Shown one piece after another: positions 2,966-55,815 of a stretch of DNA of 64,000 nt; the first letter of the stretch is position 1, and each line of letters opens with the position of its first letter. The DNA is from Mytilus edulis (lineage: Eukaryota). The position numbers were made by a program, and so were the translations under genes. The stretch lies in the NCBI RefSeq assembly GCF_963676685.1, contig NC_092345.1:78678001-78742000 (forward strand), given 5' to 3'. The notes under the pieces were generated by a model that saw only the letters and a program-made list of their open reading frames with translations, was not told the origin of the DNA and did no database searches.

Positions 2966-5154
2966 CAGTTTGAAACAACATCAACTATTCAGCAGTTTAC
3001 TACCTTTATATGATAAACTGAAGTATAAGTGTGGTAAAGCAAGTTTATAAGCTCTCCGCTTATTTTTTCTCTCTCACATATTGGAAAACAAAGTTGGGTA
3101 GTATGGTAAAGTGAAGTCATTTGAATATTCATTATTTATGTAATAGATCTATGCTATTGGCAAACAAAATTTATTATTTCAATATGAATCAATAATAGTA
3201 ATTCGGAAAACACTGACTGTCTTTGCGTTTCTATCATTTAGAAGTATAGTATTGTGGATAGTTGTTTCATTGACTTTCATACATCTGGTTATGTTTTAAA
3301 CTGGATAAGAAATCTTGCTATTTACTCTCAGTGGGTGTTTTACATACTATAAAACTAAATACGGAATTGTGGTGAATCTTCACGAATATGGTCATTATCA
3401 TACTCATTGGAAATATTATTTGGGTAACCGTTATCATATGTATATGTCCAATGCTTTTAAAAAATCAAATAAATATAAAAATGTCCAATATGTTCTGTCT
3501 TTCCGATATATCAGTGTAGAAACGAAATTTGTGAAGTCATCCTCATGACATAAATCATTTAATTATAAATCAAATTTAGTTATAGCATCACCAAAAAAAC
3601 CAAACATCTTAGCATTAGATTTTTTGTTGCCAACACAAAGTCCTCTTGATTAAGACCTTTTCTTAGTGATGATGTAACATATTTTAAGCAGGAAAAAAAA
3701 ACTATAAATTGGTCAAACTATAGCTAGATTTCACTTATAAATATATCATGATTTTTTTGTGGAAAGCATTGTTCTATCCACAGAACAAAATTGTGCATCA
3801 CAACTATCTTGTTATGAAAATGTAAATCATAAAGCTAAACAGTTTCAATATGAATTGTCCTTTAAACAATTCTGTTTGCCTTAATACTATTGAAAATTTT
3901 TTGATAAAGGTGATAACTAAACTGTTTTTCAATCTTACGTCTCGTAATGATGACTTTTATGATCATCAATTCGCTTATTGAAAGTTTGTAGCAGAAATAA
4001 AAACTTTTTAATTTGTATTTCTGCATTGTAACTTTGTTCATGTTTATTGATTGTTTTACACAAGGTGTTGTGTCCCTGTATTGAAACTGGTATTTGTAAC
4101 TTAGTTTCCTGGTGATCCAGGCCATGTTTAGCTGATTTAAACAGTTTTGTTTATTTTAAAAATGCTTTCGTAGAACTCCATTCTCCCATATAAAGTTAGT
4201 TTAAAGTGATCCCAAACATATCTAAACCTTTTATATTTTTGTTTTTTCCCTGTCCCTGTTATCGTTGGCTTCTGTCTGATTTATTTGCTTACGTTTATTG
4301 TTTTAGCACTTAGCTATTTTGGTACATACATACGAAGTCATGTGAAATCAAAGGTTTTCACAACTCTTTAATATTAAAAATCATCAAATATATCATTTAG
4401 TTTAAATTATACAATAGTTACTAAAAATGTGAAGTTCCTAGGAATTTAATTCTTCAGTTTCCTCTATAATCCCGGGTAAATCTGTTGCCATTTACTAATA
4501 ATTTCCATGACTACGAGCACTATATAAAGTTCTATAGAATAAATTTACATGAATGTTACCATAATGAACAGCAAAAAGAAATAGCAGTAAAATCATTTAT
4601 TTATCAGAAGTTAATGTAATTATTCTCATTAGAAGACCAAGAAAGTTAAAAGGCTTAATAGGATGCCTTCATGACATAGCTAATTATATCGTCAGGAAAT
4701 TTACAATCATATGGAGTTTTCATGAATTATAACGGGTCAAAAATATTTTAACACGAAGAAATATTCAATTAAAGGATGCTGACAGCGAAGTGAATTTAAG
4801 TATAAGGAGTTTTGGTAGAAAAAAGTGTGCGAGTTTATACAATTAGATTAAGCTACAAAAGAAAAAAATATCATGAATCACTAGGTATTGATATATAGTA
4901 TCAAATGGTTCAACATAACTCATGGAAAGATGTAATAGTATTCTGGTGAATTTTATATTTCTATAAATATAAATTAGGAACTGATTCATTTGAAAATGCT
5001 TCTTATTCTACCAAGTATTACTTAGCTTTACAGAAACGGCTGTATTTGAGTGCTTTATTCTTTTTCTTAAATGAACAATTAAGTTTTCCGGAACGGCAGA
5101 GAAAGGAATTTTCATCATCAAATATATATATTGTATAACAATAACTATAACATA

Positions 5155-6123
5155 ATGGAACTTTATGGTACTGGTTTTAGAGTTACTTGTTTGGTGTTTT
5201 CTATCTTGATGTACATCATTGGAACCGTTGGTAATTTACTGATTATATGGACTATTACCACAGTAAAACGAATGAGAAGTATTCAGAATATGCTTCTAGC
5301 ATTGTTGGCTGTTATTGACCTTCTTATTATAGGATATTTAATGCCTTTTGGTATGCACGTACTCATAACAAATGAAAAACCAGGATTTGGTGCATGTCGT
5401 TTTCAGGCAATCATCACGGCATTTTTATTTTCATGTAGCATTCAATTCATTATGTTCATTGCCTTATCGCGTTACTTTAAAATTTGTCATAGCCAGAAGT
5501 TTAACAGAATAGTTACCGCGAGGAACGTTATAATAGCAACAATAGGGGCGTGTGCGGTAGGGGCTTGTTTCGCGTCCTCGCTGTGGTTTTTTGAATCATT
5601 GTGGACATTTGAATTTCCAATGCATTCCTGTATTTTTGACAGATACGGATCAGTGACCTTTTCCGTGATCTTTATGGCAGTTGTTATTGCTTTTCCTGCT
5701 GGAGTTACAGCTTTTTCGTACATACGAATATATCGTCATGTGAACAAGGCTAGAACACAACTTCATAAAAACTGGAACAACGGTCTTGCACAAAGAAAAT
5801 TTAAATATGAACAAATCTTAACAAAGACACAATTTGTAGTGTTTATTGTTTACATGGTGATGTACTTTCCGTTCGGAATAACGGCCGTAGGTGGACAGAG
5901 ATCTGATTATCCCGATGTTCTGCATACATTGTCTATTTATATGTGTTATCTGAATAGTTGTATCAATAGCATATTGTATGGCGTTTTGAACAAAAATATG
6001 AGAAGAGGCTACTTGGAATCCTTACGATTTGTTAAACCGAATCAGAACAATAGTGTAGTACCAACAGTGTCAGGACATTTGAGCGGAGGACAAACAACAC
6101 AAGCGTCAACACAACAAGGTTGA
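5155..6123 (+). CDS. Class A GPCR, melatonin-receptor-like, single coding exon (322 aa from the first ATG)
   Basis: Seven hydrophobic segments; GN in TM1, LAxxD in TM2, SRYFKICHS after TM3 (cf. NRYxxICHS of melatonin receptors), NSILYGVLNKNMR in TM7/helix 8. The ORF-track start at 5131 is a TTG; the first ATG is 5155. Confidence 0.9.
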   Translation: MELYGTGFRVTCLVFSILMYIIGTVGNLLIIWTITTVKRMRSIQNMLLALLAVIDLLIIGYLMPFGMHVLITNEKPGFGACRFQAIITAFLFSCSIQFIMFIALSRYFKICHSQKFNRIVTARNVIIATIGACAVGACFASSLWFFESLWTFEFPMHSCIFDRYGSVTFSVIFMAVVIAFPAGVTAFSYIRIYRHVNKARTQLHKNWNNGLAQRKFKYEQILTKTQFVVFIVYMVMYFPFGITAVGGQRSDYPDVLHTLSIYMCYLNSCINSILYGVLNKNMRRGYLESLRFVKPNQNNSVVPTVSGHLSGGQTTQASTQQG

Positions 6124-9100: not shown

Positions 9101-10138
9101 TTTCTGCACTACAAAAGGCAGGAAACAAATACACAGGTGTACCAAAGTCATAATCAACAAATGAAAATATTTGATCAATTCTACTCGCTTAACATAAATA
9201 TAAAAAATGTTTCTGTTCCTGTTTTAAATTAATTTACTGACTTTGTTTCGTTCGATAACAAATTTAAATATTTGATTTTTTTCATGGTTTACCATTTGTA
9301 ACAACATGTTAAGATTTTAGAATATTAACTGAACCTTGGCTAGCAATGATGATATATACCATATACATATTATTGTACCTAAAACAAACTTACCAAATTA
9401 GTTATCAATATCAATGCAAACAAGTTTGCAATCATTATACTGAATATGTCTTTTACTTTAAAATAAGTAAAGTAGTGTTGTTAAACCCTTAAAATGATAA
9501 ATTTCGAAACAGATTAGATCAGAGCATCGAATGTCTCGTTTCAGGAAGCCCATGTAGGACATCCGAAAACATAATTTTAATTCGAAATCGCGAATTGTAT
9601 AATTCGTTGTCATAGATTAAATTTGTGATAACGAATTTGTGCTATTCGTTATCAGTCAAACTGACGATTTCGGCCGTCTGAAAAAAATGTGAATCTCGTC
9701 TTACTGATTATTTTGCTTTGTAAAGTTTCCCTCTATCTGATATAGTTGAAAATAAGAAAAACCGCAAACTAATTAATCAAAAAGTGATTAGGAGCAATAA
9801 GCAATAAGGTCTATTGCCTCTTTCAATCATGTGGAATTATTTTGTAGATCTTTGTTTTATGATCATTTTATAATAATTTATATATAATTTTCAAAATATA
9901 GACAAGACACAAAATATAAAAAAGCCTAAATAAAGGAAAATATACAAATACCTGTAAATAGTTATTTAACAATTTTGACGTAAATAGACAGAAGGTAAAT
10001 CTTCTAAACAATTCTCTATCTAAAGTGGTTTTCAAAATATGCGATCATATCGTTCCGAAGGTGGACTAATTCCATAAATTCAAGATAACGAGATTATCAC
10101 GAATTTAATCTGTCATAACAAATCTACATTTGATAAAT

Positions 10139-10508
10139 TTGGTACCGTTAATGTTATTACTACCACTGGATCGATGCCTCTGCTAGTGGACTGTTAGTCC
10201 CCGATGGTATCACCAGCCCAGTAGCCAGTACTTCGGTACTGGCATGAAAATACGGATTTTTTGTGTTATTAAAATTTGCTGTTACAAAATGTTAGAAATT
10301 ATTATACATTAAGGAATGTATCTCCCTCATGCAAAGCTCTGATTCCTTTCACGGATTTGGTTATACTTTTTGGACCTTTTTGATTATTGCTCTTCATCTT
10401 TTATTTAAGCTTTGGACTTCAAATATTTTGGCCACGAGCATCGCTGAAGAGATATGGATTGTTGAAATGCGCATCTGCTGCAGGATAATTGGTACCGTTA
10501 ATGTTATT
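10139..10508 (+). mobile_element. Non-LTR retrozyme monomer, family 2 (350-nt period)
   Basis: Direct repeat TTGGTACCGTTAATGTTATT at 10139 and 10489, exactly 350 nt apart; contains a hammerhead core at 10438-10481. Confidence 0.8.
10438..10481 (+). ncRNA. Minimal type I hammerhead ribozyme, family 2
   Basis: gcatcg-CTGAAGA-gata tggat tgtt-GAAA-tgcgca-TC-tgctgc: core CUGANGA/GAAA/AUC intact, palindromic AUGCGCAU stem III, one mismatch in stem I. Confidence 0.8.
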
Positions 10509-14935: not shown

Positions 14936-17900
14936 TTAACGCCATGGTCCCCAGAAGCCACCACGTAGTTCAGGATTTGCCTGTGGATCACTCCCAGGAA
15001 ATCTTACTGGTACTGAAGATTTGTCATACTCCGCCAGCATATCTAACATCTCCTTAACTATTTGTGGACGGCTTGCTGATAAATCTGTTGTCTCTAAAGG
15101 ATCGTCTCTTATATTAAACAACCAAACGTTTTTCTTTCTTGAATCTTGTGGTGTTGATCTTGCCAAACCCGTTCTCGGGTTTGGGTTATAATTTTTGTAC
15201 CCTTAAATAAAAATAGATTGTGATATTGAATGCAGCAACTTTGTAATAAATTTGTTTCTACTTATTCGTGATAAACCTTTATACTTACCCAAAAACATGT
15301 ATCTAATATTTACGAAAATACACCGTTTACATTAATTCGACAACAACATCCAAATGAATCTTCAATGTGTTGATCCCATGTGTATTGGTGACAGCCTCGT
15401 GCTTACAATTTTTTTTCTGCATCTAGAGGTTGAGAAAGAGACAGAAAAGGAGTGCCTTGCATACGAAAAAAATACAAAAATACAGGAAAATATTTTTTTC
15501 TTAATCTTTTCCGGTAAATAACACGAAGTTTCTTTATTAATGTAATTACATAGTTCTTTTAAATATTTACCTGGTTTTCCAGTCAGAAGTTTGTAGTCTT
15601 TATATCGAATAGCAGCATGTTTCGTAGTATCAAAACTACTGTTAAATAATGGTCTGCCAAACCGACGCGCTAAAGGATCAATACCATGAAGAATGACTTC
15701 TCTGGGGCTCTTCTCTCTCCCACTGATATATTCAATCAAAATTGAAAATAAATAAATACATGTATGTATTATGCTCAACTTACAACAATATAATAATATT
15801 TAAAAAATGCAGTAACATAACAATTGTTTAATACCGAACACTTAAAATCATTATTGAAAGAAAACATAACACAAATACAAAAATAAAGAAGTAGAAAAAT
15901 AGTGAAAATATCTTGAGACTCGTGTTGCCGTTCTTGCTAATTTCTCATACAAGCTTACTAATATTTTTCAACTCTATATATAAAAAAAAACATGTATAAG
16001 ATATATACTAATAGTTGTAATTTATTTTGATTTCTGTAGTCTCTCATCATTCTTAATAGAATGGTACTTGTATTTTAGTTTATAAAATGTCTGTTTCATT
16101 TACATAAATCAAAAGTATATATCATTTGTATATCATGATGATTGTTTTATATGTATACATGATGTATTAGAAGTGGTGAAACTTTAATAAAATATCATCA
16201 AATAAAAATAAGTTAAACGCAATAGGACTCCCAAAGAAGACATAAGGATATGAACAAATTACTCTTCTCGCCTAAACATTGGAGTTTAATTACCAAAAAC
16301 ATCTGACATTCAATTAATTATTTTGGAAATTAACGAAGTTAATGATGTACACCTCTGAGGAGCCAAACATTTCTAGAATTAAATTTGGTTTCTTCAAGGA
16401 TTTGTTCAGTACTTTACAAAGCCTTGGTTTTACTTGATTTTTTGGTTTATATAAATGTAAGAAAGTAATATGCATGATTCCAATCGTTATATTTCCATCA
16501 TAATTTAAACGCAGAATACTGACATACCTTATCGCATCCCACTGATCAAATCCGTCGAGAGGTTTTACCCCTTCAAAGTTCCCTTGAGCCTGATTTACAA
16601 GTGTTGGAAACCAGTCAGTAACATGCATTAGTTCTCGAGACACTGTCCCTTTATTTCTTACTTGTCCGCCACACACAAATCCTACTCCACGAATTCCTCC
16701 TTCAAAATTACCTCCCTTGTTTCCTCGCAATGGATAATTATTGCCACCTCTACTGATTTGACCACCATTATCTTGAAAGAATAATTATTTAATAAAGTGT
16801 GGTCTGTCAGTACAAGCCAACTACAAGACAAAAAAATCAAAGATTGAAGGTGTTATGCTTGAAATGGTATAGAAAATATAGTAATGTTACATATCTTATG
16901 TAGGTATTTCCCTATAATATTTTTCGTAAGAACCTAGATTTTCAAGCTAAGGACAGAAAGAAACCTTACACAAATAATGTAGACGTAATATCAAGTGTCA
17001 AATTTACTTATATTGCAAAAATGCTGATATGTGTAATCCTAACCAAAAAAGAAATAGTATCATCATAATGAATTATTTATTCGTGAAAACGACTACGTAG
17101 CTTACATGTATATTGCCAACTTTATTTAATTATTGATTAAACCAATTTTGTGGAAAGTGTTATATATTTTGTTACCAAAGTTTTAAAATATGAAATATAA
17201 TCACAATTTTGTTTTGTTTTAGCAAAATTAATTTTACTACTACTGTCCCTATAACATTTTGAAAACTATGAATCCCAAAAGGGTAAATTTTCAAAATGAG
17301 AAACAATGAAATTGAAAGTTTAGTCTCATTAGAATAATATTTTAGATAAAGGCCAAAAGGCTTAAAGCCAAATTTTGCTTGGATTATTTTATTGAAAATA
17401 TTCGGACATGCATGTACTTTTGCAATAAATTTAGCAATTAAGATGTGCTGTAAAATTCATTTTAAAATAGAAGTCTACAATAAGTGTTGTTTTTGTCAGT
17501 TGCAATTGTAAAAAAAAACGGGGGTTAATCTGTCATTTTGCTGTGAGAAGCTGGAAAATCATTGTAATTATGTGCCAAAATCTGTTGAGAGCTTTTAACT
17601 TTAACAGAATGGCCTTACCTGTTGAAAAGATAAAGATAGTATTCTCCCAGAGTCCCTTTCGTTTTAGGGCTCTCGTTATATTTCCAACACCTTCGTCTAA
17701 CGCAGAAACCATTCCTTTCAAAAGAACAAAAATATCAATTGTACATAATTGTAATAATCAACATCTTTGTGTTTCATGTCGAACAATCAATTATGTCATT
17801 AATTCATTTCAGAGCTCTGAATTCATTCGTTACTCGTGTCCTTTTTCGCTACGAGGTTATAATAAAAAAGGTCCTGAAATTGTTTACAAATTAACCTTTG

Positions 17901-20900
17901 TTGTGTATTTTGATTAATAGTTATGCATTCGGTGATTATGTTTATATTGGACAATGACGCAAACGTGTGTGCAAATGCTTTACACAAGGTTACAGACTGT
18001 TTATTTTAATCATATTTCATTCCTTTCATATAGTATCAATAACATGTAGATAGACAAAGATCTGAAGCATCTACATCATGTGGAGCAAACAATGTTTATT
18101 TGAACAAACTTCGAACGCAAGACATGACTGTTTAAACTGTTGCTCAATTTAAATATTTGGATACTGAATCTTGTCATACAGTAAGTTTGAGATGCCTATA
18201 TTGTGTTTCACTCGGCGTTTCCGGAAAAAAAAGTTTACGTTTCCGCAAAGAAATATCTTACCTTTCCGGAAAAAAGGAACTATTCCGGAAAAAATAAATT
18301 ATTGCTTTTCCGCAAATAATTGAGGAATACTTGTTGATCGAAAGCAAAGCCATAATATAAAATAAATATTAAGTAAGTCAAAGGTCATCATAACATGCAA
18401 GTAAAATTCATCATTTAAATCTATGAAAACGTATGTTCAAAAGTCAGCACTAATCAGAAATATCTTGATATGAGTTCATAAGTCAGTTCTGGCAGAATAT
18501 TTGTAGCCAATACGCCGCACAAAGTCCACAGTAGTACATTCACCGTTTACAAGTTTTGTATTTTGTTCAAGAAGGAAGTCCATCTTCTCCTTTTCACATT
18601 TCCAAACGAGTGCTTTTACAGTTAGAGTTCTCATCTTTATGTAAGATGTTGTTTGCAGTTTCAATAACACATCGATAAAAACAAAAATGTTAGGATGGCT
18701 AGCGTAAAACTGCTCGTTCAAGTGGGCATGAAAAGACTCATCCCTATTCGTGTTTTCGTAACAGCAGTATGCATTACACATTCAAAGTCATTATGAACTA
18801 CCTCGGGCTGGTAAGTTATTCTTCGGGTAGTGCACACATCAATAAGCCGATCCAACAGTTTCGTGTAACATTCCTCGGATTTAAGTGGAAGTAACGCAAA
18901 TACAAGACGAATGTAGTTACCATTTTTACATCCATGTATCGAATAAACTTAGTTGGTAGAAAAATTTCGGACAGGATTTAAATGTGCCATCTATGAAAAT
19001 ATCAGTCATTTCATTACATAGACATACCAAGTTGGTGAAACATGAAAGTATAACGATTCCCGAATCAAATTCATTGACGAATTAAAAGTGAAAATAAGTC
19101 TCAGTTTTGTTAGTGTTCAAATCTATATGTCTTAATGTCTCGTGAATTTCTAATCTACATTTAGGTAATTTTGGAAACTGCTTTCGCCTGTCTCTGTATA
19201 AGGGCATAGCAACATTTTTCAAGTCAATATATTTTCAAATATTTATAATTTACCAGGTAAATTTCCGGAAAAGTAATAAATGCAAATTGCTGAAACGTTT
19301 ACTTTAAATTTGCGGAAACGTAGCATTGAGACTTTGAAAAATTAGCGGAAATGCAATTCGCCCGTTTCACTGAAGGTATCATACGTTCACTCATCCATGA
19401 CGAAATGACGTATCACTCATACGTTCACGCATACATAACGAAAGAACTCTTTATCGACTATTGGCTAGCTTTATTTTTTTATTATTATGGAATCGAATTT
19501 AAATTCATCGTACAACACCATTGCCAATATATTATGTCATTTAACTTTAAAACTTAAACTGCCAAGGTAACTGTCTTATATCCAAGTCGATATGAGAAGA
19601 TAACTATGTTTGGGTAGCTGTCTTATATCTAAGTCGATATTAGAAGATAATTATGTTTGGGTAGCTGTCTTATATTTAAGTCGATATGAGAAGATAATTA
19701 TGTTTGGGTAGCTGTCTTATATCCAAGTCGATATGAGAAGCTAATTATGTTTGGGTAGCTTTCTTATATCCAAGTCGATATGAGAAGATAATTATGTTTG
19801 GGTAGCTGTCTTATATCTAAGTCGATATGAGAAGATAATTATGTTTGGGTAGCGGTCTTATATCCAAGTCGATATGAGAAGATAATTATGTTTGAGTAGC
19901 TGTCTTATATCCAAGTCGATATGAGAAGATAATTATGTTTGGGTAGCTGTCTCGTATCTAAGTCGATATGAGAAGATAATTATGTTTGGGTAGCTGTCTT
20001 ATATCTAAGTCGATATGAGAAGATAATTATGTTTGGGTAGCTTACTTATATCCAAGTCGATATGAGAAGATAATTATGTTTGGGTAGCTGTCTTATATCT
20101 AAGTGGATATGAGAAAACATGTGTTTGGGTAACTGTCATATCTAAGTGAGTAACTTCTAGATATCACGAGCAAACATGTGTTTTTGGTAGCTGTCTTAAT
20201 CTAAGTGGATATTTCATGAGATTGTCTCTTACCTGCATACTGTCGTCTATGTATATCCGGAATAGTATTTTTGTATGGATGAATATATCTCTTTGGTGCT
20301 TGTAGAGGGGAATGAGGAGCTTGATATGGTACATACATGAACAAAGGCTGCGGATGACACCAAAAAAATAATGCAATACTGTATTAATCTTCAATAACAA
20401 ATAAATAGCTATTAAAGGACTGAAATGTATATGTTCATAAAACAGATAAACACTATCCTTTTTCTGTACTCACGGTTACCTTAAAATTGACAAATATGTT
20501 ATATTTTTCCATGTAACAAATAACCTTTATTTTTCTTTTAATTATTAATGTCTTGGGTTTTATTTGTTCTAATTAGTGTATAAGTATATCAAATAACTTT
20601 TTGTAGCGGATAATTGCTCCGTTTTGAAGAAAATTAAAGCGATATGGTGTTTAATTCAAGACAGAAATCCCCCTGCTGAAAGCAAAAGCAACGTCGATTT
20701 ACAGAATAGTTTAAGATTTCGAGAAATAAGTATTAACTTATTGTTGCATCAAGAAATATACCTTAGACGATTGGTGACTATCGATGATATCCACAGCTCG
20801 TCGTGAAAACAGAGTTGTCGAATATTCACGATTGGTTCGTATTTGACGTTCATTTTCCCTAAAATCATCCCCGCACATTCCTCGGTCACAACGTCTGTGA

Positions 20901-23900
20901 TGATAGTGGGATTTAGAACCGACCAGAAAACCTGAAAAATAACGAACATGAATCGACAAAATTATATTATTGTTTTTTTTTTCTTTTTTTCTTTTTTCTA
21001 TAAATTCGTATATTGCAAGTCAATTCTTCAGTGTTTATTAACTTATTCAAAGAACGAATTACAAGCAGATTTAAATTTCATAATCATTACCAGGCAAACA
21101 AATGATTTCATCTTTATGCATGAACATTAAATGACTGAGACTTTAAGGGGGTGAATTTCATATTTATGATTTCTTGTTACACTTGGAAAAAAATTGACGA
21201 TATCATTACTCATTTCTAATATTTCCGTGTGGTTTTTTTCAAAGTGGTTGGTCTTTTAAATATGCATTATAGAGATGACGTATGATTTCCAATGATACAA
21301 ATATCCATCACATATAAAAAAAAAAAAAAAAAAGTTCGTCTATTGGTTAGATGCATGTTTTTTTTATATTCATAGTTTTAATTTTTAAACCTTTAATTTG
21401 TTCTTTATGATGTACCTTTGTCTTTGCTTTTTTGATATCGCTTAACTTAATATGTAAATTATATAATTTGATTCACCATAAAATGTATCAAATCCTCGTC
21501 GTGTTGGAAGAAATTCATTTTTGTAGAAACCAAGATGCCATTTCCCAATACAGTGTGTGCTATATCCAGCCTGTTGAATTTTATCTGCTATAGTCAGACT
21601 ATCGGTTGGCAAGGCAGTCGGTTTAGATGGCTGTATATTACCATGTTGCATTCCAGTACGAATCTGTAAATACATGTGGAAACCATAAAATTAAATGAAG
21701 TTTTGTACCAGTGAGATATTACATTTGTTTGTGGCACAAATTGACATTAAATCAGTTCCAGATGAAATAAAAAATCATCGTATACCACGATCTATACAGG
21801 CCTAGAATTGTACTAATCATGCCCAATTATATGACACGATAGAACATTCAAATGTTTATATTCCTAGTTTGTCCCCAGCGTGATGCGTTCGTCCATCCGT
21901 CTGTCCGTTCGGTTTTGTTGACGCTCTCGCGTGTATATTACTTGTTTAGTTTTTATAAAACTTATAGCATAGCTTTATGCAAGCAATGTCTCAGACAAGT
22001 TCGAAAATCAGTGCTGATCATTTCTTCTTAAAAGGGTTATAATTATGCCTCTCGGGAATATTGATTATATTGGAAATTGCATCGCATTTGCTCTGAACCC
22101 TTCACTTCTCTAAGATAGTTGAAAAAAAAAGTTTTCGTTATTGCCCTTGGAAAGATAATGGATAGATGAAATATGTGCAACGCGGGCAACATTGGAACTC
22201 TATTTTATTTAGCATACTGCATTGATAAGTTTTATTTGGCACAACTTTTTGGACTTTTGGATCCTCAATGCTCTTCAACTTTGTACTTGGTTGGCTTTAT
22301 AAATATTTTGATATGAGCGTCACTGATGAGTCTTATGTAGACGAAACGCGCGTCTGGCGTACTAAATCATAACCCTGGTACCTTTGATAACTAATTATGC
22401 AAAAAGTACTTGTAGATGGCATTGGTAAAAAAATTAGTATAAAGGACTTGAAATACATTTTGGTTAGTACTATAGTTGAATATTCAGATTCGTAATTATA
22501 CATCACTACGATTTAAACTTCACTGTATCTATTAATAAATGACGACACTATTGGAAAAGGAAAGACTGCAGATCTATATTATCTGTTATGTAGTTTGCCT
22601 GTTACACATGTATATATGTGTCTGAGTGTTTCAAAATAAAGTTATTATTTTTCTGTTATTTTACTTTCCACTCTTAAACACATTGTTTTTAAGGATGGAC
22701 ATTACAATAAAAGATTAAAAAAAAAAGGATGAATTCATCAAAAAAAGGTAAGGCAAGCTATATCGTGTTAATGTAAGTAGTATATAAATTAAAAAAAATC
22801 AATGCTCAATGCAACATTGAAACAAAATGAATTCCTGTACCCTGTAGCGCCTGTGCTTAAAGTCATAAATGTCTCCAACTAATTAGTGACATCTGATGTA
22901 ATATTTCTACTGGTAACCACTTTTTAGTCTTTAACTTCCCCGTCCTTTGGTCTCTGGTGGAGAGTTGTCTCATTGAAAGATTGGAAGGTCTGCGACTTAG
23001 ACATATCTCTGTGTCCATAAAATAATTGTGATCGGAATAATAGGAAAGGTTCAGCATAAGTCGATAGAACAGACACGATATAATATAATAAACATAGTAC
23101 ATATAAAATCAAGACATGTACAATGATTTCCGATGAGACGACTGTCCACAGAGATCACTGAATGGCAGGAATTTTAGCAGCTTTATATGTTTCCGTTCAG
23201 CAGATGCAATAATAACCAAAACTATACCATTTAACAAGGTATAAAAGTCTCTGGTAAGATACATTTCAAACAGAAAAGCATCGGCCTGGTTTATAATAAA
23301 ACCAAACATAAAAAACAAATCTGGCTTACAAAACAAATGACCAACACTGCATTGATTGCCCTTTTATTAGTGTCTCATAAGTCGTTTTTGTGGTTGTTTT
23401 ATGTGTATGTATCTATATAATTTTGCTTATTTTCTTGTCAATTTAAAATATGTGAGATCTTAATAAACTATTTACTTACTTTACTTTCTTCCTCTGTTGT
23501 AAGTGTGGCATTATTTAATTGTCGCAAATCATGAATTATATGGTCATAATTATGAATTAAATGTTTACAAAACTTAAAATTTTGAAATTCTAAGGCTTTT
23601 CTACACCAGGAATAGATTACTTTAGCTGTATTTGGCAAATATTATAGATGTTTTTGATCCTCAATGTTCTTCAACTTCTTACTTTATTTGTGCTTTTTAA
23701 CTGTTTATTCGGGCGACATTACTGATGAGTCTTTTGTAGACGAAACGCGCGTTTTGGCGAAAATACATAATTTCAATTTTGGTATCTATGATGAGTTTAT
23801 TTATTATCAACTATTAAAACAGGACATGATCTTTTGAAGCTGTAAAATGAAATTATGTATATCATAGTCTATACTACTCTTACCTGGTATCTTCCAGACA

Positions 23901-26572: not shown

Positions 26573-26696
26573 ACATAGGAACAGCATATTAAATGAAAAG
26601 CTAAAACACATACTTAAGAGATGTTTTACATTTAAGATATCCATGATTTTGTAATTAATAAGGGATACACAAATTTAAAGCTTCTCGTTTGCTTGA

Positions 26697-26773
26697 GGAT
26701 CACTGAAGGGACATTAATTGTCGAAATGCGCATCTGGTACATTTAAATTGGTACCGTAAATATTATTATTGAT
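26697..26773 (+). ncRNA. Family 2 hammerhead fragment with core substitution (CUGAAGG)
   Basis: ggatca-CTGAAGG-gaca ttaat tgtc-GAAA-tgcgca-TC-tggtac, followed by the TTGGTACCGTAAAT family-2 tail. Confidence 0.7.
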
Positions 26774-32829: not shown

Positions 32830-34034
32830 CAGATATTCTGCTGTAAATAAACAATGACAGTTCATTCATGTAGTGCGCCCGAGCTGTGTTCTTTGAAATG
32901 TTCATTAGAAGCTTTTAACACCTTCAAAATCATATTTGAAAACCAAGGTTGCGTAGATAATTTCAGAAATAAATATATAAAGGGATATGGATTGTTTGTA
33001 CACAGCGGTATTAACATAAAATGACTGCAACTTTCTCAGTCAATTTAACTCTGCTGCATTAAATACTAAAGCCATTCAAAAGTATATTCATAATTCAGCT
33101 ATATATCAAATTTCATGCTTAATTACCATTATAGTAAACATTAGCCGACAAAAGCGCCTGAATCAATCTAATGTCAAGATCATAAAAACAAGACATTTTT
33201 TATATGATTCACTTTCATACATATTGTTACATAAATCATATAATAAATCCAACTACATGAGCACTTTATACTTATCATTTACACAAGAGTTATTTACGTT
33301 TAGTCAAACCTAATCTTGGAAAATATTAATAATAAAATAACATCAATATATTTGTTTAGTAAATAAAGTCCGCTTATTTCAATATCAATTTTCCTACGTT
33401 TTAAGAATAATTGAATAGATACATATGACCGGTTGATTATGGAAATTAAATAAGTATTTCTTGTTATTTCAATCTACTTTCGATTAAACAGACACAGAAA
33501 TGGGTAGAGCATTGATTCAAGATAAAAAGACCCAATGCACTATGTTTTCAATCCTTGCTACATTGTTTGCATTGTCATCACTAAAACCGCAATATTTTAC
33601 AGTAGGCACCATCATTTTATATATATTTGTAAATATAATGTTTCTCGTATAAACATAATACTAGCGGTTATGTCTTATCCAACTGTTTTTGTAATGTTGT
33701 TAAAAGAACTTAACACACCATTGGAAATAGACTGCCAGTGGGAAAACAAATAGAGACTTGACCACTTTTCTTGGGTTTAAAATATCCAAAACTTGTAAAA
33801 CATGTCCCAGTGAGTTAAGACGCCGATATGACGTCTCGGTCAACTTATACGTGGCGGTGACTGTTAAACTTATGTATCGTCAATTTAAGCCTCTCTTCCT
33901 CATAACTCCGTTGGAACAGGTTTTTGAAGCAAAAACAACCTCCCGCTAATAAAATCCGTATAGAATGAACACACACGATCGTACCCTATCAATTAAGATA
34001 TGTAAACGCCATAGGAAGGTGCATAGGGTATGTT

Positions 34035-34300
34035 TGTAAGCACTTTTGATATGGTCATAATTAAAAATTAACTGTTTACACAATTTAAAGTTTTTCGAAA
34101 TAATAGGGATTTTCAATTCCAGGAAAAGCTGTATTCAACTAAAACTATCGGAATTTGTTATCTTCAGTGATCTTCAACTGCTTACTTTCTTTTATCCTTT
34201 TAACTTCTTTTGATACAAGCGTCATTGAAGATACCTTTGAAGACGAAAATCGGTTCTGGCTTATACAATTTCAAGTCTGGTATCTGTGGTGAGTTTATTT
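34035..34300 (+). mobile_element. Highly eroded retrozyme family 1 copy
   Basis: gcgtca-TTGAAGA-tacctttgaagac-GAAA-atcggt-TC-tggc, with the CTGGTATCTGTGGTGAGTTTATT tail. Confidence 0.6.
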
Positions 34301-35061: not shown

Positions 35062-35952
35062 TTGTGTAAAAGAGGGACGAAAGATACCAAAGGGACAGTC
35101 AAACTCATAAATCTAAATCAAACTGACAACGCCATGGCTAAAAATGAAAAAGACAGAAAAACAATAGTGAACATGACACAACATAGAAAACTAAAGAATA
35201 AACAACACGAACCCCACCAAAAACTAGGGGTGATCTCAGGTGCTCCGGAAGGGTAAGCAGATCCTGCTCCACATGTGGCACCCGTCGTGTTGCTTATGTG
35301 ATTACAAAATTTTAATCCGGTAAATAGTCTAATTCGGTAGGTCACATTCATGAAAAGGAAGGGAATTGTAGTTACGACGTAAGGAACATATCCGATATCA
35401 TTTGTGAAACGGTTATTCCATAACGGTCAACCAACTCGTGATGGCGTCCGTAAAATTTACGAAGGGATGATTTCAACTTCACCATTTGGAACTCTTGGTT
35501 TAAAAGCTTTCTTGTGAGCAATAACACTCTATCAAGAAAATCATGATAGGAAATACAAGCACGGGAATATCGTATCAATTGGGAGATATATACCCCGTAT
35601 GCAGGTGCTGCTGGAATGTTGCTACTTAGAAATGGAAAGTTCACAATTGGAAAGCTGAAATCATCTCTTTTGTCGTAAAGTTTTGTTTTCAACCGACCCT
35701 CATTGTCAATTTCTAGATGTAAGTCAAGATATGAAGCCGACTTAACTGTATCTGTAGTATCCTTTATCTCTAGTTCGATGGGATAGATGCATTCCACATA
35801 GTCACAAAATTTTGAATTGTTTAGTGAAAGAACATCATCTATATAGCGGAAAGTAGCGTTAAAGGATATTGCTAACTTCTTATCTTTCTTCCTAAGAAGT
35901 TTCTGCATGAAGTCAGCCTCATAATAATAAAGAAACAAGTCGGCAAGTAGAG
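35062..35952 (-). mobile_element. Penelope-like retroelement, 5'-truncated RT C-terminal half plus 3' region; no endonuclease seen
   Basis: PLLADLFLYYYE (RT motif 4), FRYIDDVL (catalytic YIDD), SYLDL, LYDKRDDF, SNIP..PAYGVYISQLIRY; the ORF stops without a GIY-YIG domain. Confidence 0.85.
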
Positions 35953-38003
35953 GTTTGACTCAATTTCCCATATTTGATATTAACGTATAGTTTACAAAAG
36001 TACAAAAGAAACAATTTACAATCTAGACTAGTTTTTCTTGCAAATTTCAGATTTGAGGCCATCTGATTAAAACTCCAGAGGTCCATCGAAAACTGCCGAT
36101 GGTCATATCATCTAATATAGTATTCCTGAATATCTGAATATACAATATATTGTATCGTTGCAAGTTAAAAAAAACCAATGAACTATGTTTTGTGTCCTTG
36201 CTATATTGTTGGCATAGTTGGTACTAAAACCACAACATTTTACAGTTTGCATCACCATCTTATCTGCAAATATAAGGTTTCTTGTAAAAGTATTAGACTA
36301 TCGGTTACTTCCTATCCAACCTTTTTTTAATGTCGTTAATAGAACTAATCACAGCATTGGGAATATATGTACATTGTCGGAAAATTTAAAAATGTATTTG
36401 TATGAGATTTAGATAGAGGACGAAAAAAGAGGCTCGCCGAGCTTTTCCCATCTTTCGTAGTGAGTTCAAATAAATTTTGTATTATCCGAAATTGTTTTTA
36501 ACGTGCAATTTACCCCCGGTACTTATGCATTAATTGTTTGAATCCAAATCTTTGCCTTTGAATTTTCGAGAAAAAAAATTCGACATATTTGAAACGCGGA
36601 CCACGAAGAGGACCCCAGAATGAACAGTTCCCCAGAGAGAAATATCAATATAACCACTTGATCAACATGTTTCTCGCATGGGAGCAGGTAAATGTAAAAA
36701 TAAAGCAACAACAGTTAGCTAATTGCAGGATAAACACGAATAGACAGACAGACGGACGTGCAATCGTATGATGATGGTTTGTCTAGGTCCGTTTAATTCT
36801 ATCTCAAAGATCAATGATATGGAAATCATCGTATAACATATACTACAATAATTTTTGTGGGCTAAATCAGACAAAGAAATTATTCTTCCTTTTGGCTACC
36901 TTGGTTTACTTTTCAATGTTGACATTCTTTTCTTTCTAATTACAGAGCATGCTTAACCCATGCATCAATAATATCAAGTTAAGGGTTAAGTTAAACGTCA
37001 CATGGATACGGATTCAAATGTATTGAATTATTGACTTGTAATACATTTCTTGAAAATAATACAATAGGAATGCATTCATAAAGGTTATTGTGACCAAATT
37101 GAACAAAAACTACATGTTTACAACGAATTATTATTACAATATTTCGTTCTTAATAATTTTGAAACAAAAAAGTCATTACGTTTTGTCTATGACGTAAATA
37201 AAGCTCTTTTAAGGTTTTTATTATTCTGTATGTTAAACACGTCTCTCATACCCTCTCTTTTTTCGCCCAACGCTTTTTTTGTGCACATAAGAATTGATAA
37301 CTCATTTTGTGCCGAATTTTCAATTATATATAGTATAGTCGGGTTGGAACTATGTTGTGATTTAGGAGCATTCGATGGACATTCTTTTCTTTTTGCTGCT
37401 ACAAGATAGGCTGGGTTTTCTTTCCTTCTTTAATCAAATTTTTGAATTTAAAAACAATGACACATAAATTCATTATTTTATTTAGCAGTCAATTAGCAGC
37501 ATATGAAAGCATTTCCAAAAAAACAATCACCAAGCCTATAATTAATATAATATATATATTACATTTCATTTAACCTTATATAATCTGAAAAGTGAACGCA
37601 CCGTTGGTGATTCTCAATAAATGAAAATCAATGTGTGAATACACCTACTAGTAATTTATCACAATCCAACATCGTACGACTTGTGCACGTTGCATAGTTG
37701 TGTTCGTCGTCTTTAAGTATTCGATCAATAGTTGAATTTCTTCATTCATTTATTTTAACAACTTACATGTATATAGATCTGGTTCAATTTCAGACTTTTC
37801 ATATGGCAATCTTTAACAAATCTCGACAGGGGTTTATGTAAGTTAGATACTGCTGTGGAAGCATTTGACGAAAAGTTCGGGAACCATTTCGATACATGTT
37901 AGTATACTATTCTAGAACAACAAATGTAGTTCAAAACTTCAAAATGCTGATAAGAACCTTTCAAGAAATGAAATTTTATAAATAGTTCTAGAGTTCCTCA
38001 CAG

Positions 38004-51824: not shown

Positions 51825-52214
51825 CGCGTCTGGCGTATTAAATTAGAAGCCTGGTACCTTTGATAATTATTAACATCACTGGGTCTATGCCAGTGCTGGT
51901 GGACGTTTCGTTCCCGAGGGTATCACCAACCCAGTAGTCAGCACTTCGGTGTTGACATGAATATCAATTATAAGTTCATTTTTATAAATTTTTTGTTACA
52001 AAAAATTTCAAAAAATAAGGTTTTTCTTATCCCAGGAATATATTACCTTAGCCGTATTTGGCACAACTTTTTGGAATTGTGGGTCTTCAATGCTCTTCAA
52101 CTTTTTACTTGTTTGGCTTTATAACTATTTTGATCTGAGCGTCACTGATGAGACTTATGTGGATGAAACGCGCGTCTGACGTATTAAATCAGAAGCCTGG
52201 TACCTTTGATAATT
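51825..52214 (+). mobile_element. Full retrozyme family 1 monomer (346 nt between GUC sites) flanked by ~44-bp direct repeats
   Basis: CGCGTCTGGCGTATTAAATTAGAAGCCTGGTACCTTTGATAATT at 51825 and 52171; hammerhead 52139-52182 with weakened stem II. Confidence 0.85.
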
Positions 52215-52377
52215 TTTGCCAGCTATTTTCATTTTTGTTATTTCTTTTTTGTTTTTTCAAATAGCTGATATTCTATTTTGCAAACTGTGATGATAATTGT
52301 CATCCCCTTCTTATAATTTTTAGCAATGATATATTGTTGTTTCTGTTATAACTATTATTCAAGTTATTTAAGCACAC

Positions 52378-52778: not shown

Positions 52779-54896
52779 TTATAATACTAACTGGAACACT
52801 TTCACCTCACTCTTATCTCCTTGCGTTATAAGCAAGCGCTCATCATTTACATCAAATGCGATTGCGCGAGGATATGATATCATGTCATGAGATATAAGTG
52901 TCTTTACTCTGTCACCTTCAGGCGAAACTACTTGTACACTCTTTGCGTGATTTCTACAAACATACAAATTTTCTTCATTATCGAGAGCAAGACCAGCGGC
53001 GTGACCTAAGTCTACACTTGAGTAAGAATAACAATGCTCTGCTGTTTCGATCAGTGTTGTTACAGACCCACGTCTTTCGTCAGCAACGTAAATCATAGTA
53101 CCTTTCCCGTTAGCAGTTATATAAATAGGCCGGGAAAATAGCTGTGACCCGTCGTCATCATATGCAACTGATGCTAGTTCTTTTCCATCAGTATCCAGGA
53201 TTTTCAGTGATGGCGGTAATCCATCGTAGGCTAAAGTGAAAAATTTACCACGGACATATGTCAATCCATAACATGCTTCGCTTGTGATGAAATAATCTCC
53301 AAGAGAAAACCCGACGTCGCTGACATTTAGAATTTGGATTGCTCGCTCTTCCGGAAGTGTCACTGCAATTTCGGAAGGGCTAATGGTTGTCACATCCCAT
53401 GGTTTAGAGTTGAATTTTATACTGTTGAGTTGTCGATAATTCTTTGCAAATAGTTTAACTTTTCTGTTCTGTCTATCAACTAAAACTAGCCGACCATCTG
53501 AAAGAAACGCAGCGCCAGTAAACCAACTATCATTTACCTCATCATGTTCATGCGCACTGAAGGTTTTTACCATCTCTGAACGTTTTCCACGCAAGGAAAG
53601 AGTAGACTTATTAAGATTCGAATGGGTATTATTCTGTTCAACGGAAATCACATTTGGAAATGGTGGTAATTTTGACGGGGAGTACCGCACGGATATTTTA
53701 CCCATTTCTTTTACTTTTGTTTGCATAATTTCTATAGCATGACCCACTTCAAACAAATATTGACAATCCTGGACTTGAGACCTCAGTTTTCCCATGGCGT
53801 CCTCATACCAAATACATTGCGTTCTAATGGATTCCATCATATGTAGAAGTCTAGAATCGGAAGCATGTACTTCAGCCACATTCATTAACTTGTGAGCGTT
53901 AGATACAGCTGAAAGCATTCGTTTACTTATGTCCATCTCTATCTGTAATTTCTTAACTTCTGCGTTGTGGATTTGACTGATATCTCGTTTCAGATTCTTT
54001 TCAAGTTTATCCAGAATATTGATGATGTTGATACGTATCGATGCAAAATTTTCAAGAAGTCGGGTTTTTTCTTCTTCCAAGTACATCAGGTGGTTTGATC
54101 GATCACCAATCATTCCGTCTATGTTGTTTTCGTATTGCTCTAAAGTTTTGTTGAGAAAATCTGGCTCTTTCTCTAATTTACTTTTCTTAACCGCATCAGA
54201 AATCGAAATAACTCTGTCACATCTTCGGTGCTCCTCTGCAATACAATTTGGACAACAAAGTTCTTTATCTAACACACAGAATAAATCAAGTGTTTTTCCG
54301 GAATGTTTGTTGCATTCTTCCTGAAGATCTTTCAATAATTCCATTTCTTTCATAAACTCCTCCTTTAGAAGTACTGTATGGTCCATAGATATGCGCATTC
54401 CTTTATGGACTTTGGCACAATTCTGACAGAGGCCATCGCGACATTCTTTACACCAAGACAATATCGCCGTTGTATCGCCATTTCTAGAACACGGACCGCA
54501 GGTTTTCTCACCTCTTCTTAATAATTCTATATCCAATAAATCCATTAGAAAATGATTGACCGGAAATCCCTCTATCCATTTGTTTGGAGTATGTGTACTC
54601 TTTAGTTGTATGTTCTTTTTACACTGATGACATTCATACTCTCTGGATTTTCTGCTGTCGTCTTTCTTTTCATTTTTTCGTGAAATGAATTCGTTAATGT
54701 TTGTTGCCAAACAATTTTCGCAGTACGAATGCAAGCACGGCAAAGTTCTTGGTGTGTTTAGCCATTTTGAACAAATTCCACAAATCAAGATAGTTTCGTC
54801 AAATTTTCGATGGATCAAATTTGATTTTTCCATAATCACAGTTTTGGATCGGACTGTAGATTTCGATGGACTGTCTCTCCCTTTCGTATTTGACAT
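52779..54896 (-). CDS. TRIM E3 ubiquitin ligase (RING, two B-boxes, coiled coil, NHL-like beta-propeller), intronless CDS, 705 aa
   Basis: RING CGIC..LPCLHSYCENC..CHQC; B-box1 CGPC..WCKECRDGLCQNC..H; B-box2 CNKH..LFC..CCPNC..H; helical segment; NHL-like repeats (PWDVT, YVAD, PRAIAFD). Splice acceptor CAG at 54914-54912 just upstream of the ATG. Confidence 0.93.
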   Translation of the reverse strand: MSNTKGRDSPSKSTVRSKTVIMEKSNLIHRKFDETILICGICSKWLNTPRTLPCLHSYCENCLATNINEFISRKNEKKDDSRKSREYECHQCKKNIQLKSTHTPNKWIEGFPVNHFLMDLLDIELLRRGEKTCGPCSRNGDTTAILSWCKECRDGLCQNCAKVHKGMRISMDHTVLLKEEFMKEMELLKDLQEECNKHSGKTLDLFCVLDKELCCPNCIAEEHRRCDRVISISDAVKKSKLEKEPDFLNKTLEQYENNIDGMIGDRSNHLMYLEEEKTRLLENFASIRINIINILDKLEKNLKRDISQIHNAEVKKLQIEMDISKRMLSAVSNAHKLMNVAEVHASDSRLLHMMESIRTQCIWYEDAMGKLRSQVQDCQYLFEVGHAIEIMQTKVKEMGKISVRYSPSKLPPFPNVISVEQNNTHSNLNKSTLSLRGKRSEMVKTFSAHEHDEVNDSWFTGAAFLSDGRLVLVDRQNRKVKLFAKNYRQLNSIKFNSKPWDVTTISPSEIAVTLPEERAIQILNVSDVGFSLGDYFITSEACYGLTYVRGKFFTLAYDGLPPSLKILDTDGKELASVAYDDDGSQLFSRPIYITANGKGTMIYVADERRGSVTTLIETAEHCYSYSSVDLGHAAGLALDNEENLYVCRNHAKSVQVVSPEGDRVKTLISHDMISYPRAIAFDVNDERLLITQGDKSEVKVFQLVL

Positions 54897-55815
54897 AATG
54901 AGAATTTTCCGCTGAATTTAATAGGTTGTTTTACACATAAGTTTTTGAAATTTGAAGTAGATAGATCGAATTCACTTCTCAATGGTACAAAGCTATTCTT
55001 TCGAAGCAAAAAGAAATAAACGAAATTTGAAATGGAAATGATTTCTTTTTGACGGTTGGCTCGGTTAATGTGAAAAATTTAAATATCCAAATGAATAACT
55101 TAATCATTTCACAGGCATACAATGAAGTGAATAGTGAGTGATGCTTGTATTTATTGAATATTTGAATTCTATTAATTTTAAAGTTTGTTGATAAGGTAAA
55201 TAGCAACGGTGAATGGTTTTTAAATCGAATTGAAAAATTGAAGTTTCAATTGTAATGATATATGTAAGGAATGTATAGAAATTTCCGTTTATACAGATTT
55301 AAATAAAACTTGTTTCTTGTGATGTTAACAAGTACTTTACTAAAATCAAAAGGCAGTTGATCAAATTAACTCAAATTAAAAATATAAAGGCGTTGAATTG
55401 AATTATCCCTCAAATGATTACCATGGTGTTTAGTCATATCAATCAGTATTAATTTCTTAAAAGAAAAATGAAAGATCTTGTGAAGTGCAAAGAATTAAAA
55501 CTTTATAAGGGTTGTAATGGCAAGAATTTAATAGAGCTCAAATCGGAATGCAACAAAAATGTTTTAACAATGAAGTCTCGTATACTACTGGCACATTGAT
55601 AACGGTATTATTTGTTTAGTTAAAAAATCATCAACAGAAACAACCAAGGAAACAACTTAGTTGTACTTTATTAAGAGCCAGGCTTTCAGTGTTAACAATG
55701 GTCATACTATACATCACATTCTGTAAATCTTCGAAGACCACATGTAACTTTTGTTAACTTCTTTTAATGTACTTGCATGGGGTTTTTTGGGGTTTATTTT
55801 TGTTTGTGGTTGGTT

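Follow-up and report, generated by a model that had tools for sequence, protein, structure and literature searches.

What is the structured RNA domain shared by two hammerhead retrozyme copies in a 64,000-nt window of a mussel genome (the window being the whole stretch of DNA analysed; the genome comprises 1.37 Gb in 14 large contigs, with ~31% G+C), and what does it do for the elements that carry it? A reading made from the sequence alone had placed two 79-mers of this domain at 10165-10243 and 51878-51956, and a sequence check confirmed both as described. At each site the window has one unit of a 350-355-bp tandem repeat that bears a type I hammerhead. Judged by sequence, these short non-coding tandem units with one type I hammerhead (350-355-bp arrays; RF00163 match) fit the mussel non-LTR retrozymes described in the accessible text of PMC7229834.

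Retrozyme families and window copies

The core pattern of the domain gave 10,234 exact matches in the genome compared with 0 for the reversed control, and a longer pattern gave 8,493. Two retrozyme families had been recognized previously; at least four domain-bearing families (A-D) were found, with 665 exact matches for family D. The observation that the rest of the monomer is AT-rich and more diverged held, with 81-92% identity between families in the core versus 65-69% in the AT-rich body (85% for the close pair A/C).

The family B insertion (10132..10508, + strand) consists of a single 350-nt unit plus an overhang, and its 3' end lies 7 nt before the next P1 position. Its Naiad-type domain (P1-P3) occupies 10165..10222 (+) and scored 80.3 bits against a model whose alignment includes this copy itself. 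From sequence and fold, P1 was assigned to 10165-10170/10217-10222 (+) and P2 to 10173-10178/10206-10211 (+), followed by the near-invariant bulged core (10180-10190/10198-10205, +) and the P3 hairpin. The P4 hairpin (10224..10243, +) has a stem that covaries among retrozyme families and a variable loop, and an AUG (10244..10246, +) stands at the Naiad ORF start-codon position and opens 22 codons only. A type I hammerhead motif with a CUGAAGA core was assigned by sequence at 10436..10479 (+), below the Rfam gathering score, with a predicted cut after 10475, ~39 nt before the P1 position.

The family A insertion (51825..52217, +) likewise contains one unit plus an overhang and ends 7-10 nt before the P1 position. 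Sequence, fold and model placed its domain (P1-P3) at 51878..51935 (+), with the P4 hairpin at 51937..51956 (+) and the AUG next, at 51957. Its type I hammerhead motif (52138..52182, +) has a CUGAUGA core and a predicted cut after 52176; a family A relative matched RF00163 (hammerhead) with E 5e-5. Further truncated or decayed retrozyme copies ending near the same site were seen at 22233-22393, 23531-23752, 26695-26767 and 34161-34296 on the plus strand and at 44000-43845 and 46778-46465 on the minus strand; the domain model missed the decayed copy at 46778-46710. A decayed RT-like remnant (33950-34050, -) touches an oppositely oriented retrozyme copy. Other features of the window, the first three labelled by eye, were a GPCR-like frame (5083-6123, +), sulfatase-like exons (15362-16784, -), a RING/B-box TRIM-like frame (52779-54917, -) and a 47-bp minisatellite (19566-20141).

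Hammerhead tandem repeats of 550-570 bp (368 motif matches) also occur in the same genome; this family lacks the domain, and some of its arrays lie beside TA repeats. This absence suggests that the domain is partner-specific and not part of the ribozyme; the 550-570-bp family is probably served by another clade of Penelope-like elements (PLEs). In a metagenome pattern scan, three of eight matches belonged to the same retrozyme families, and the other five, in GC-rich DNA, look like chance (four were scored by the model, with nothing found).

A nested stem-loop fold

Seven family representatives shared one nested MFE structure, consisting of P1, an internal loop, P2, the bulged core and P3, and both window copies were modestly more stable than shuffles (z -2.3 and -2.7). 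On an alignment of just 8 rows, related to each other, 95.3% of 172 cells were paired in the nested fold and two-sided changes occurred in 4 of 22 pairs; pairing fell to 37-49% on sliding. For these 8 related rows, cell-based measures beat 498-500 of 500 shuffles, and pair-based measures were not significant (21/500 and 179/500). The G-U pairs fit the hammerhead strand only and exchange with G-C and A-U. P1 varied little in this alignment; in a second Naiad it reads ACCAAG/CTTGGT, and in published Naiad heads ACCGAA/TTCGGT, ACTGAG/CTCAGT and ACTACG/CGTAGT, while P2 in published heads reads GTATC/GATAC, GGTGTC/GGCACC and GATATG/CATATC. P1 and P2 thus covary across Naiads. The near-invariant core cannot covary, so the evidence for its pairing is the predicted fold plus a G-to-A change by which a U-G pair becomes U-A.

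Several helices proposed in the sequence-only reading stood. The enclosing ACTGG..CCAGT helix (P1) exists, and adding Naiads brings out its covariation; the inner hairpin, GGACT-gtt-AGTCC or GGACG-ttt-CGTTC (P3), covaries as well. For the 8-bp C(UUCG)G hairpin (P4), the stem was upheld, with 40 of 40 cells paired and two-sided changes in 2 of 8 pairs in five distinct retrozyme rows; the conserved loop was not, since UUCG is lost in family C and in Naiads, where the hairpin is also shorter. The ATGCC/GGTAT helix exists as P2, nested and not crossed as had been suggested. The second crossed pairing, GCTGGTG/CACCAGC, showed two-sided change in 0 of 7 pairs and kept only 4 of 7 in one Naiad; its 5' strand is already paired in the nested fold, and its pair probability was 0 in one window copy and 0.38 in the other. 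Its apparent fit arises largely because P1 and P2 already fix those bases, and it is a possible alternative conformer. The proposed pseudoknot or switch was rejected, as the crossed helix has no two-sided changes. Several of the differences between the two window copies are not covariation but pair-breaking departures from the common family sequence (10170, 10185 and 10205 in one copy). The domain is a real nested stem-loop, not a pseudoknot, and the view of it as a selected RNA module was supported. What is new on the fold is that it is nested, lacks a pseudoknot and can dispense with the UUCG loop.

A comparison with Rfam, proposed earlier as a check, gave no match to the domain (0 at gathering in the window). 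Relaxing the limit to E 5 over seven loci put no match on the core, and one chance-level NEAT1_2 match overlapped a 5' flank. HDV-like ribozymes form a nested double pseudoknot with P1.1, P4 and a J4/2 cytosine. That the domain is not of this type, as had been noted, agrees with covariation that favours a nested rod and with the 0 of 7 two-sided changes in the crossed helix. For a hammerhead, permuted ones included, both the CUGANGA and GAAA core strands are absent from the sense domain in every family. Type 2 Pol III promoters, as in SINE heads, have conserved A and B boxes; here the B-box-like letters vary across Naiads and no convincing A box was seen by eye. A telomerase RNA core combines a template, a pseudoknot and a TERT-binding stem, and the domain, with no supported pseudoknot and no Rfam match, would resemble it in function only.

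The domain in Naiad elements and the insertion end

Sequence comparison identifies the domain as the RNA element at the 5' terminus of autonomous Penelope-like retrotransposons of the Naiad group; mussel hammerhead retrozymes have kept it, and its origin is no longer unexplained. When four retrozyme monomers were compared with a 3.37-kb Naiad unit by BLAST, the sole match was the domain (61-65 nt, 82-87% identity). Sensitive local alignments outside the domain gave z at most 1.7 in 12 comparisons, and homology between retrozyme bodies and Naiad 3' UTRs was dropped as not significant. The domain precedes a 997-aa frame in which N-terminal GIY-YIG, CxC, DKA and C-terminal RT motifs were recognized by eye in one ORF; Pfam returned RVT_1 alone, at E 1.5e-4 and below the cut-off, with no GIY-YIG match. 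The element forms partial tandems (pLTR), has no canonical hammerhead, and its unit lacks the CUGANGA core. The partner thus resembles the Naiads of Craig et al. 2021 (PMC8557442), which in the accessible text share the N-terminal GIY-YIG, CxC, DKA and RT, the partial tandems and the lack of a canonical hammerhead.

At a Naiad tandem junction in a copy outside the window, the domain lies 6-7 nt past the common 3' end and carries a two-sided P2 change. The Naiad version of the domain has 139 exact genome matches, and a Naiad 3' end directly precedes it in 18 of 20 loci. The window itself contains a 5'-truncated autonomous Naiad copy (35068..35960, -; RT C-terminus and 3' UTR) that ends at its family's common end; full copies of this family carry the domain. 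A second Naiad family in the same genome has the domain with a 24-nt hairpin inserted after the P2 5' strand, and a domain model built without this family still detects it (E 6e-4). A third Naiad family with the domain came from a symbiont assembly; the prokaryote genome contigs held three Naiad loci, within two symbiont assemblies, which are probably host mussel DNA. No Naiad relative was found in viral contigs, where two core-pattern matches with weak model scores were taken as chance.

Consensus relatives of the partner Naiad among the PMC8557442 sequences consulted begin with the domain. In the published consensus heads (first 140-350 nt of all 54, judged by eye, without statistics; PMC8557442 File S5), the element was clear in 13 of 54, namely 9 of 11 bivalves, 3 of 4 hemichordates and 1 of 3 chordates (a fish). 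A looser form appeared in four further heads (three Acropora and Beroe), two heads were doubtful, and 35 of the 54 did not show the element in those first 140-350 nt, some of these consensus sequences being incomplete. Within the sequence coding for the Naiad N-terminus, ~60-85 nt after the end of P1, oyster, mussel and hemichordate heads keep a second hairpin that shows two-sided changes; retrozymes lack it.

Insertion ends were mapped at de-duplicated loci, chosen by similarity searches that favour copies reaching the end; arrays that contained a piece of <85% identity or ran past the locus boundary were excluded. The last matching base of the retrozyme 3' end lay 4-9 nt before P1 in 88 of 145 cases, across all four families, although this zone makes up <2% of the unit length; 100 of 145 ended 2-14 nt before P1 and 45 elsewhere. 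Retrozyme 5' ends were scattered over the unit, and an excess in its first 25 nt is probably an artefact of the reference-unit start. Among Naiads, 32 of 37 3' ends fell 2-14 nt before P1. In an independent run, 985 contigs departed from the Naiad sequence at 5-8 nt before P1 and continued into AT-rich flanks that are unrelated to one another, with a ~15-fold drop in depth at the exit point. Target-primed copying leaves the 3' end of an insertion at the point where the reverse transcriptase started. By this rule, the fixed 3' end would put the start on the RNA immediately 5' of the domain.

Some arrays consist of the domain alone. An 83-bp unit is repeated 24 times before a full Naiad (from G000:C12:78783745 on) and is arrayed at a second locus too, and a 66-bp unit is repeated seven times inside a family D copy. 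Each junction connects the start site with a position immediately 3' of the domain, the two sides having 2-3 bases in common; either repeated re-copying by the reverse transcriptase or DNA-level expansion would produce them. At G000:C1:68129022, a 201-bp internally deleted Naiad stands in tandem with the usual end and no hammerhead, a ribozyme-free mini element.

Retrozymes of M. galloprovincialis self-cleave and form circular RNA, according to the accessible text of PMC7229834. In two raw RNA runs from a related organism, first mates lay mostly opposite the hammerhead strand (~3:1 and under 2:1), the pattern that sense RNA gives if the libraries are of the usual stranded kind. Family A reads crossed the start site into the domain in three runs (119, 140 and 250 reads), which argues against constant cleavage there, and read ends did not pile up at the start site, in fragmented libraries that show ends poorly. 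Some read starts were seen near the P4 base.

Proposed reverse transcriptase docking and its alternatives

The domain is probably the site bound by the Naiad endonuclease/reverse transcriptase, with copying starting a few bases 5' of it, and the retrozymes would hijack this system. An RT-recognition or priming signal was among the functions suggested earlier, and two findings now back it: the domain is the same as the element that autonomous Naiads carry at their 5' end, and the insertion end adjoining it is fixed. Under this proposal, tandem Naiad RNA or a retrozyme circle would present the domain 3' of a U-tract and a short AC-rich linker, and the Naiad protein would bind the near-invariant bulged core. 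The protein would nick AT-rich DNA, and target-primed reverse transcription would start internally at the U-tract and proceed 5'-ward via the hammerhead and body, a circle or multimer allowing more than one round. Repeated rounds would give 350-355-bp tandem arrays whose 3' end is fixed while their 5' ends are scattered. The labour would be divided, the hammerhead making the circle and the domain getting it copied. Besides docking, the domain could have a second role, in the translation or transcription of Naiads.

Docking of the reverse transcriptase is a likelier role than self-cleavage, promoter activity or translation. The AUG of the Naiad ORF follows P4 in three Naiad families, 15-25 nt after the domain, which makes a translation or promoter role possible in Naiads, and AUGA is kept at this place in all four retrozyme families. 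That the domain is an IRES-like translation-initiation element carried along by retrozymes is nonetheless improbable: the retrozyme AUG opens 17, 22, 4 and 2 codons only, with no common peptide, though the core is the best-kept part, and translation leaves the fixed insertion end unaccounted for. A new ribozyme cleaving immediately 5' of its own position, making the template 3' end and standing in for the missing hammerhead, would suit insertions that end at the domain's 5' side and Naiads that lack both canonical hammerheads (accessible text of PMC8557442) and a CUGANGA core. We consider it very improbable, since RNA reads span the site without a pile of read ends in the fragmented libraries, insertion ends spread over ~6 nt, the simple rod fold has no HDV or hammerhead core, and M. 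galloprovincialis dimers yield full monomers and full-length circles in the available parts of PMC7229834. The undescribed catalytic fold once suggested is not supported.

The earlier suggestion of an internal promoter, here taken as a DNA element serving Pol II or as the B box of Pol III, fared no better. In Penelope and Chlamys, internal promoters lie where the pLTR ends (PMC8557442, in part), retrozymes are highly expressed (PMC7229834, in part), and sense reads outnumber antisense. Two-sided changes and strand-specific G-U pairs indicate RNA, however, and family B has T-runs within 20 nt downstream. The 5' part of the domain resembles the Pol III B-box consensus, from which it differs at a single position; these letters are altered in oyster, deep-sea mussel and fish Naiads with pairing kept, and we rate a promoter as poorly as self-cleavage. 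Descent from a Naiad junction without any present role in retrozymes would parallel Xenopus, whose retrozymes derive from PLE terminal repeats (bioRxiv 10.64898/2026.07.22.740005, in part). Such a passive relic would hardly show higher identity between families in the core than in the body, compensatory changes inside retrozymes and the same end position in all four families, and we give it the least credence.

Relation to known systems and significance

Retrozymes, Naiads and a general retrozyme-PLE link are already published. The retrozymes of the window resemble the M. galloprovincialis non-LTR retrozymes, which are expressed and have 350-390-bp tandem repeats, type I hammerheads and thousands of copies (PMC7229834, accessible text). 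PLEs were proposed as their helpers (Cervera and de la Pena 2020, PMC7229834), whereas the text available there names no helper clade, shared RNA domain or fixed insertion end. Similarly, the accessible text of PMC8557442 describes no 5' RNA structure ('hairpin' and 'stem-loop' occur 0 times) and links retrozymes in a general remark only.

For PAc (Poseidon, Anolis), reverse transcription in vitro starts internally at an AC-rich stretch (+111-118) and RNA is needed to +172 (Frangieh et al. 2024, PMC11167929, in part). PAc is alike in its internal AC-rich start downstream of a hammerhead and its requirement for RNA 3' of the start, a likeness of start-site logic. PAc differs in clade, in a required region inside the ORF and in having two start sites, with no conserved fold or parasite described in the accessible text. 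Vertebrate retrozymes also share sequence with PLE pLTRs (bioRxiv 10.64898/2026.07.22.740005); the accessible preprint text covers Xenopus and other vertebrates, no molluscs and no RNA structure, and its PLE partners bear hammerheads themselves.

RNA structures recruit the reverse transcriptase in LINE/SINE 3' stem-loops, the R2 3' UTR and telomerase RNA anchor stems, and are borrowed by non-autonomous partners or set the template position. Unlike these, the domain sits at the 5' end of its element and on the 3' side of the start site, and the likeness would be one of function. No published description of the RNA element or of a Naiad-mussel link was found in a search covering few subscription papers; supplements of PMC7229834 and of the bioRxiv preprint may show the region.

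Tentatively, and with more doubt than belief, the domain may be an ancient RNA anchor, present from comb jellies and corals to fish, that docks a telomerase-related reverse transcriptase and fixes its start a few bases upstream. A 60-80-nt module alone might then suffice to write any circular RNA into the genome, and it might drive repeated re-copying of one short template, as the 66- and 83-bp domain-only arrays hint.

The docking proposal names a likely helper enzyme for a published class of abundant animal circular RNAs, with a hammerhead-bearing parasite that would ride on a hammerhead-free host. It also supplies a defined conserved RNA fold and a putative start position for reverse transcription by Penelope-like elements; in the literature found, in vitro work had covered just one such element. 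With fold and start position defined, priming by this telomerase-related group of reverse transcriptases would be directly testable with a short RNA.
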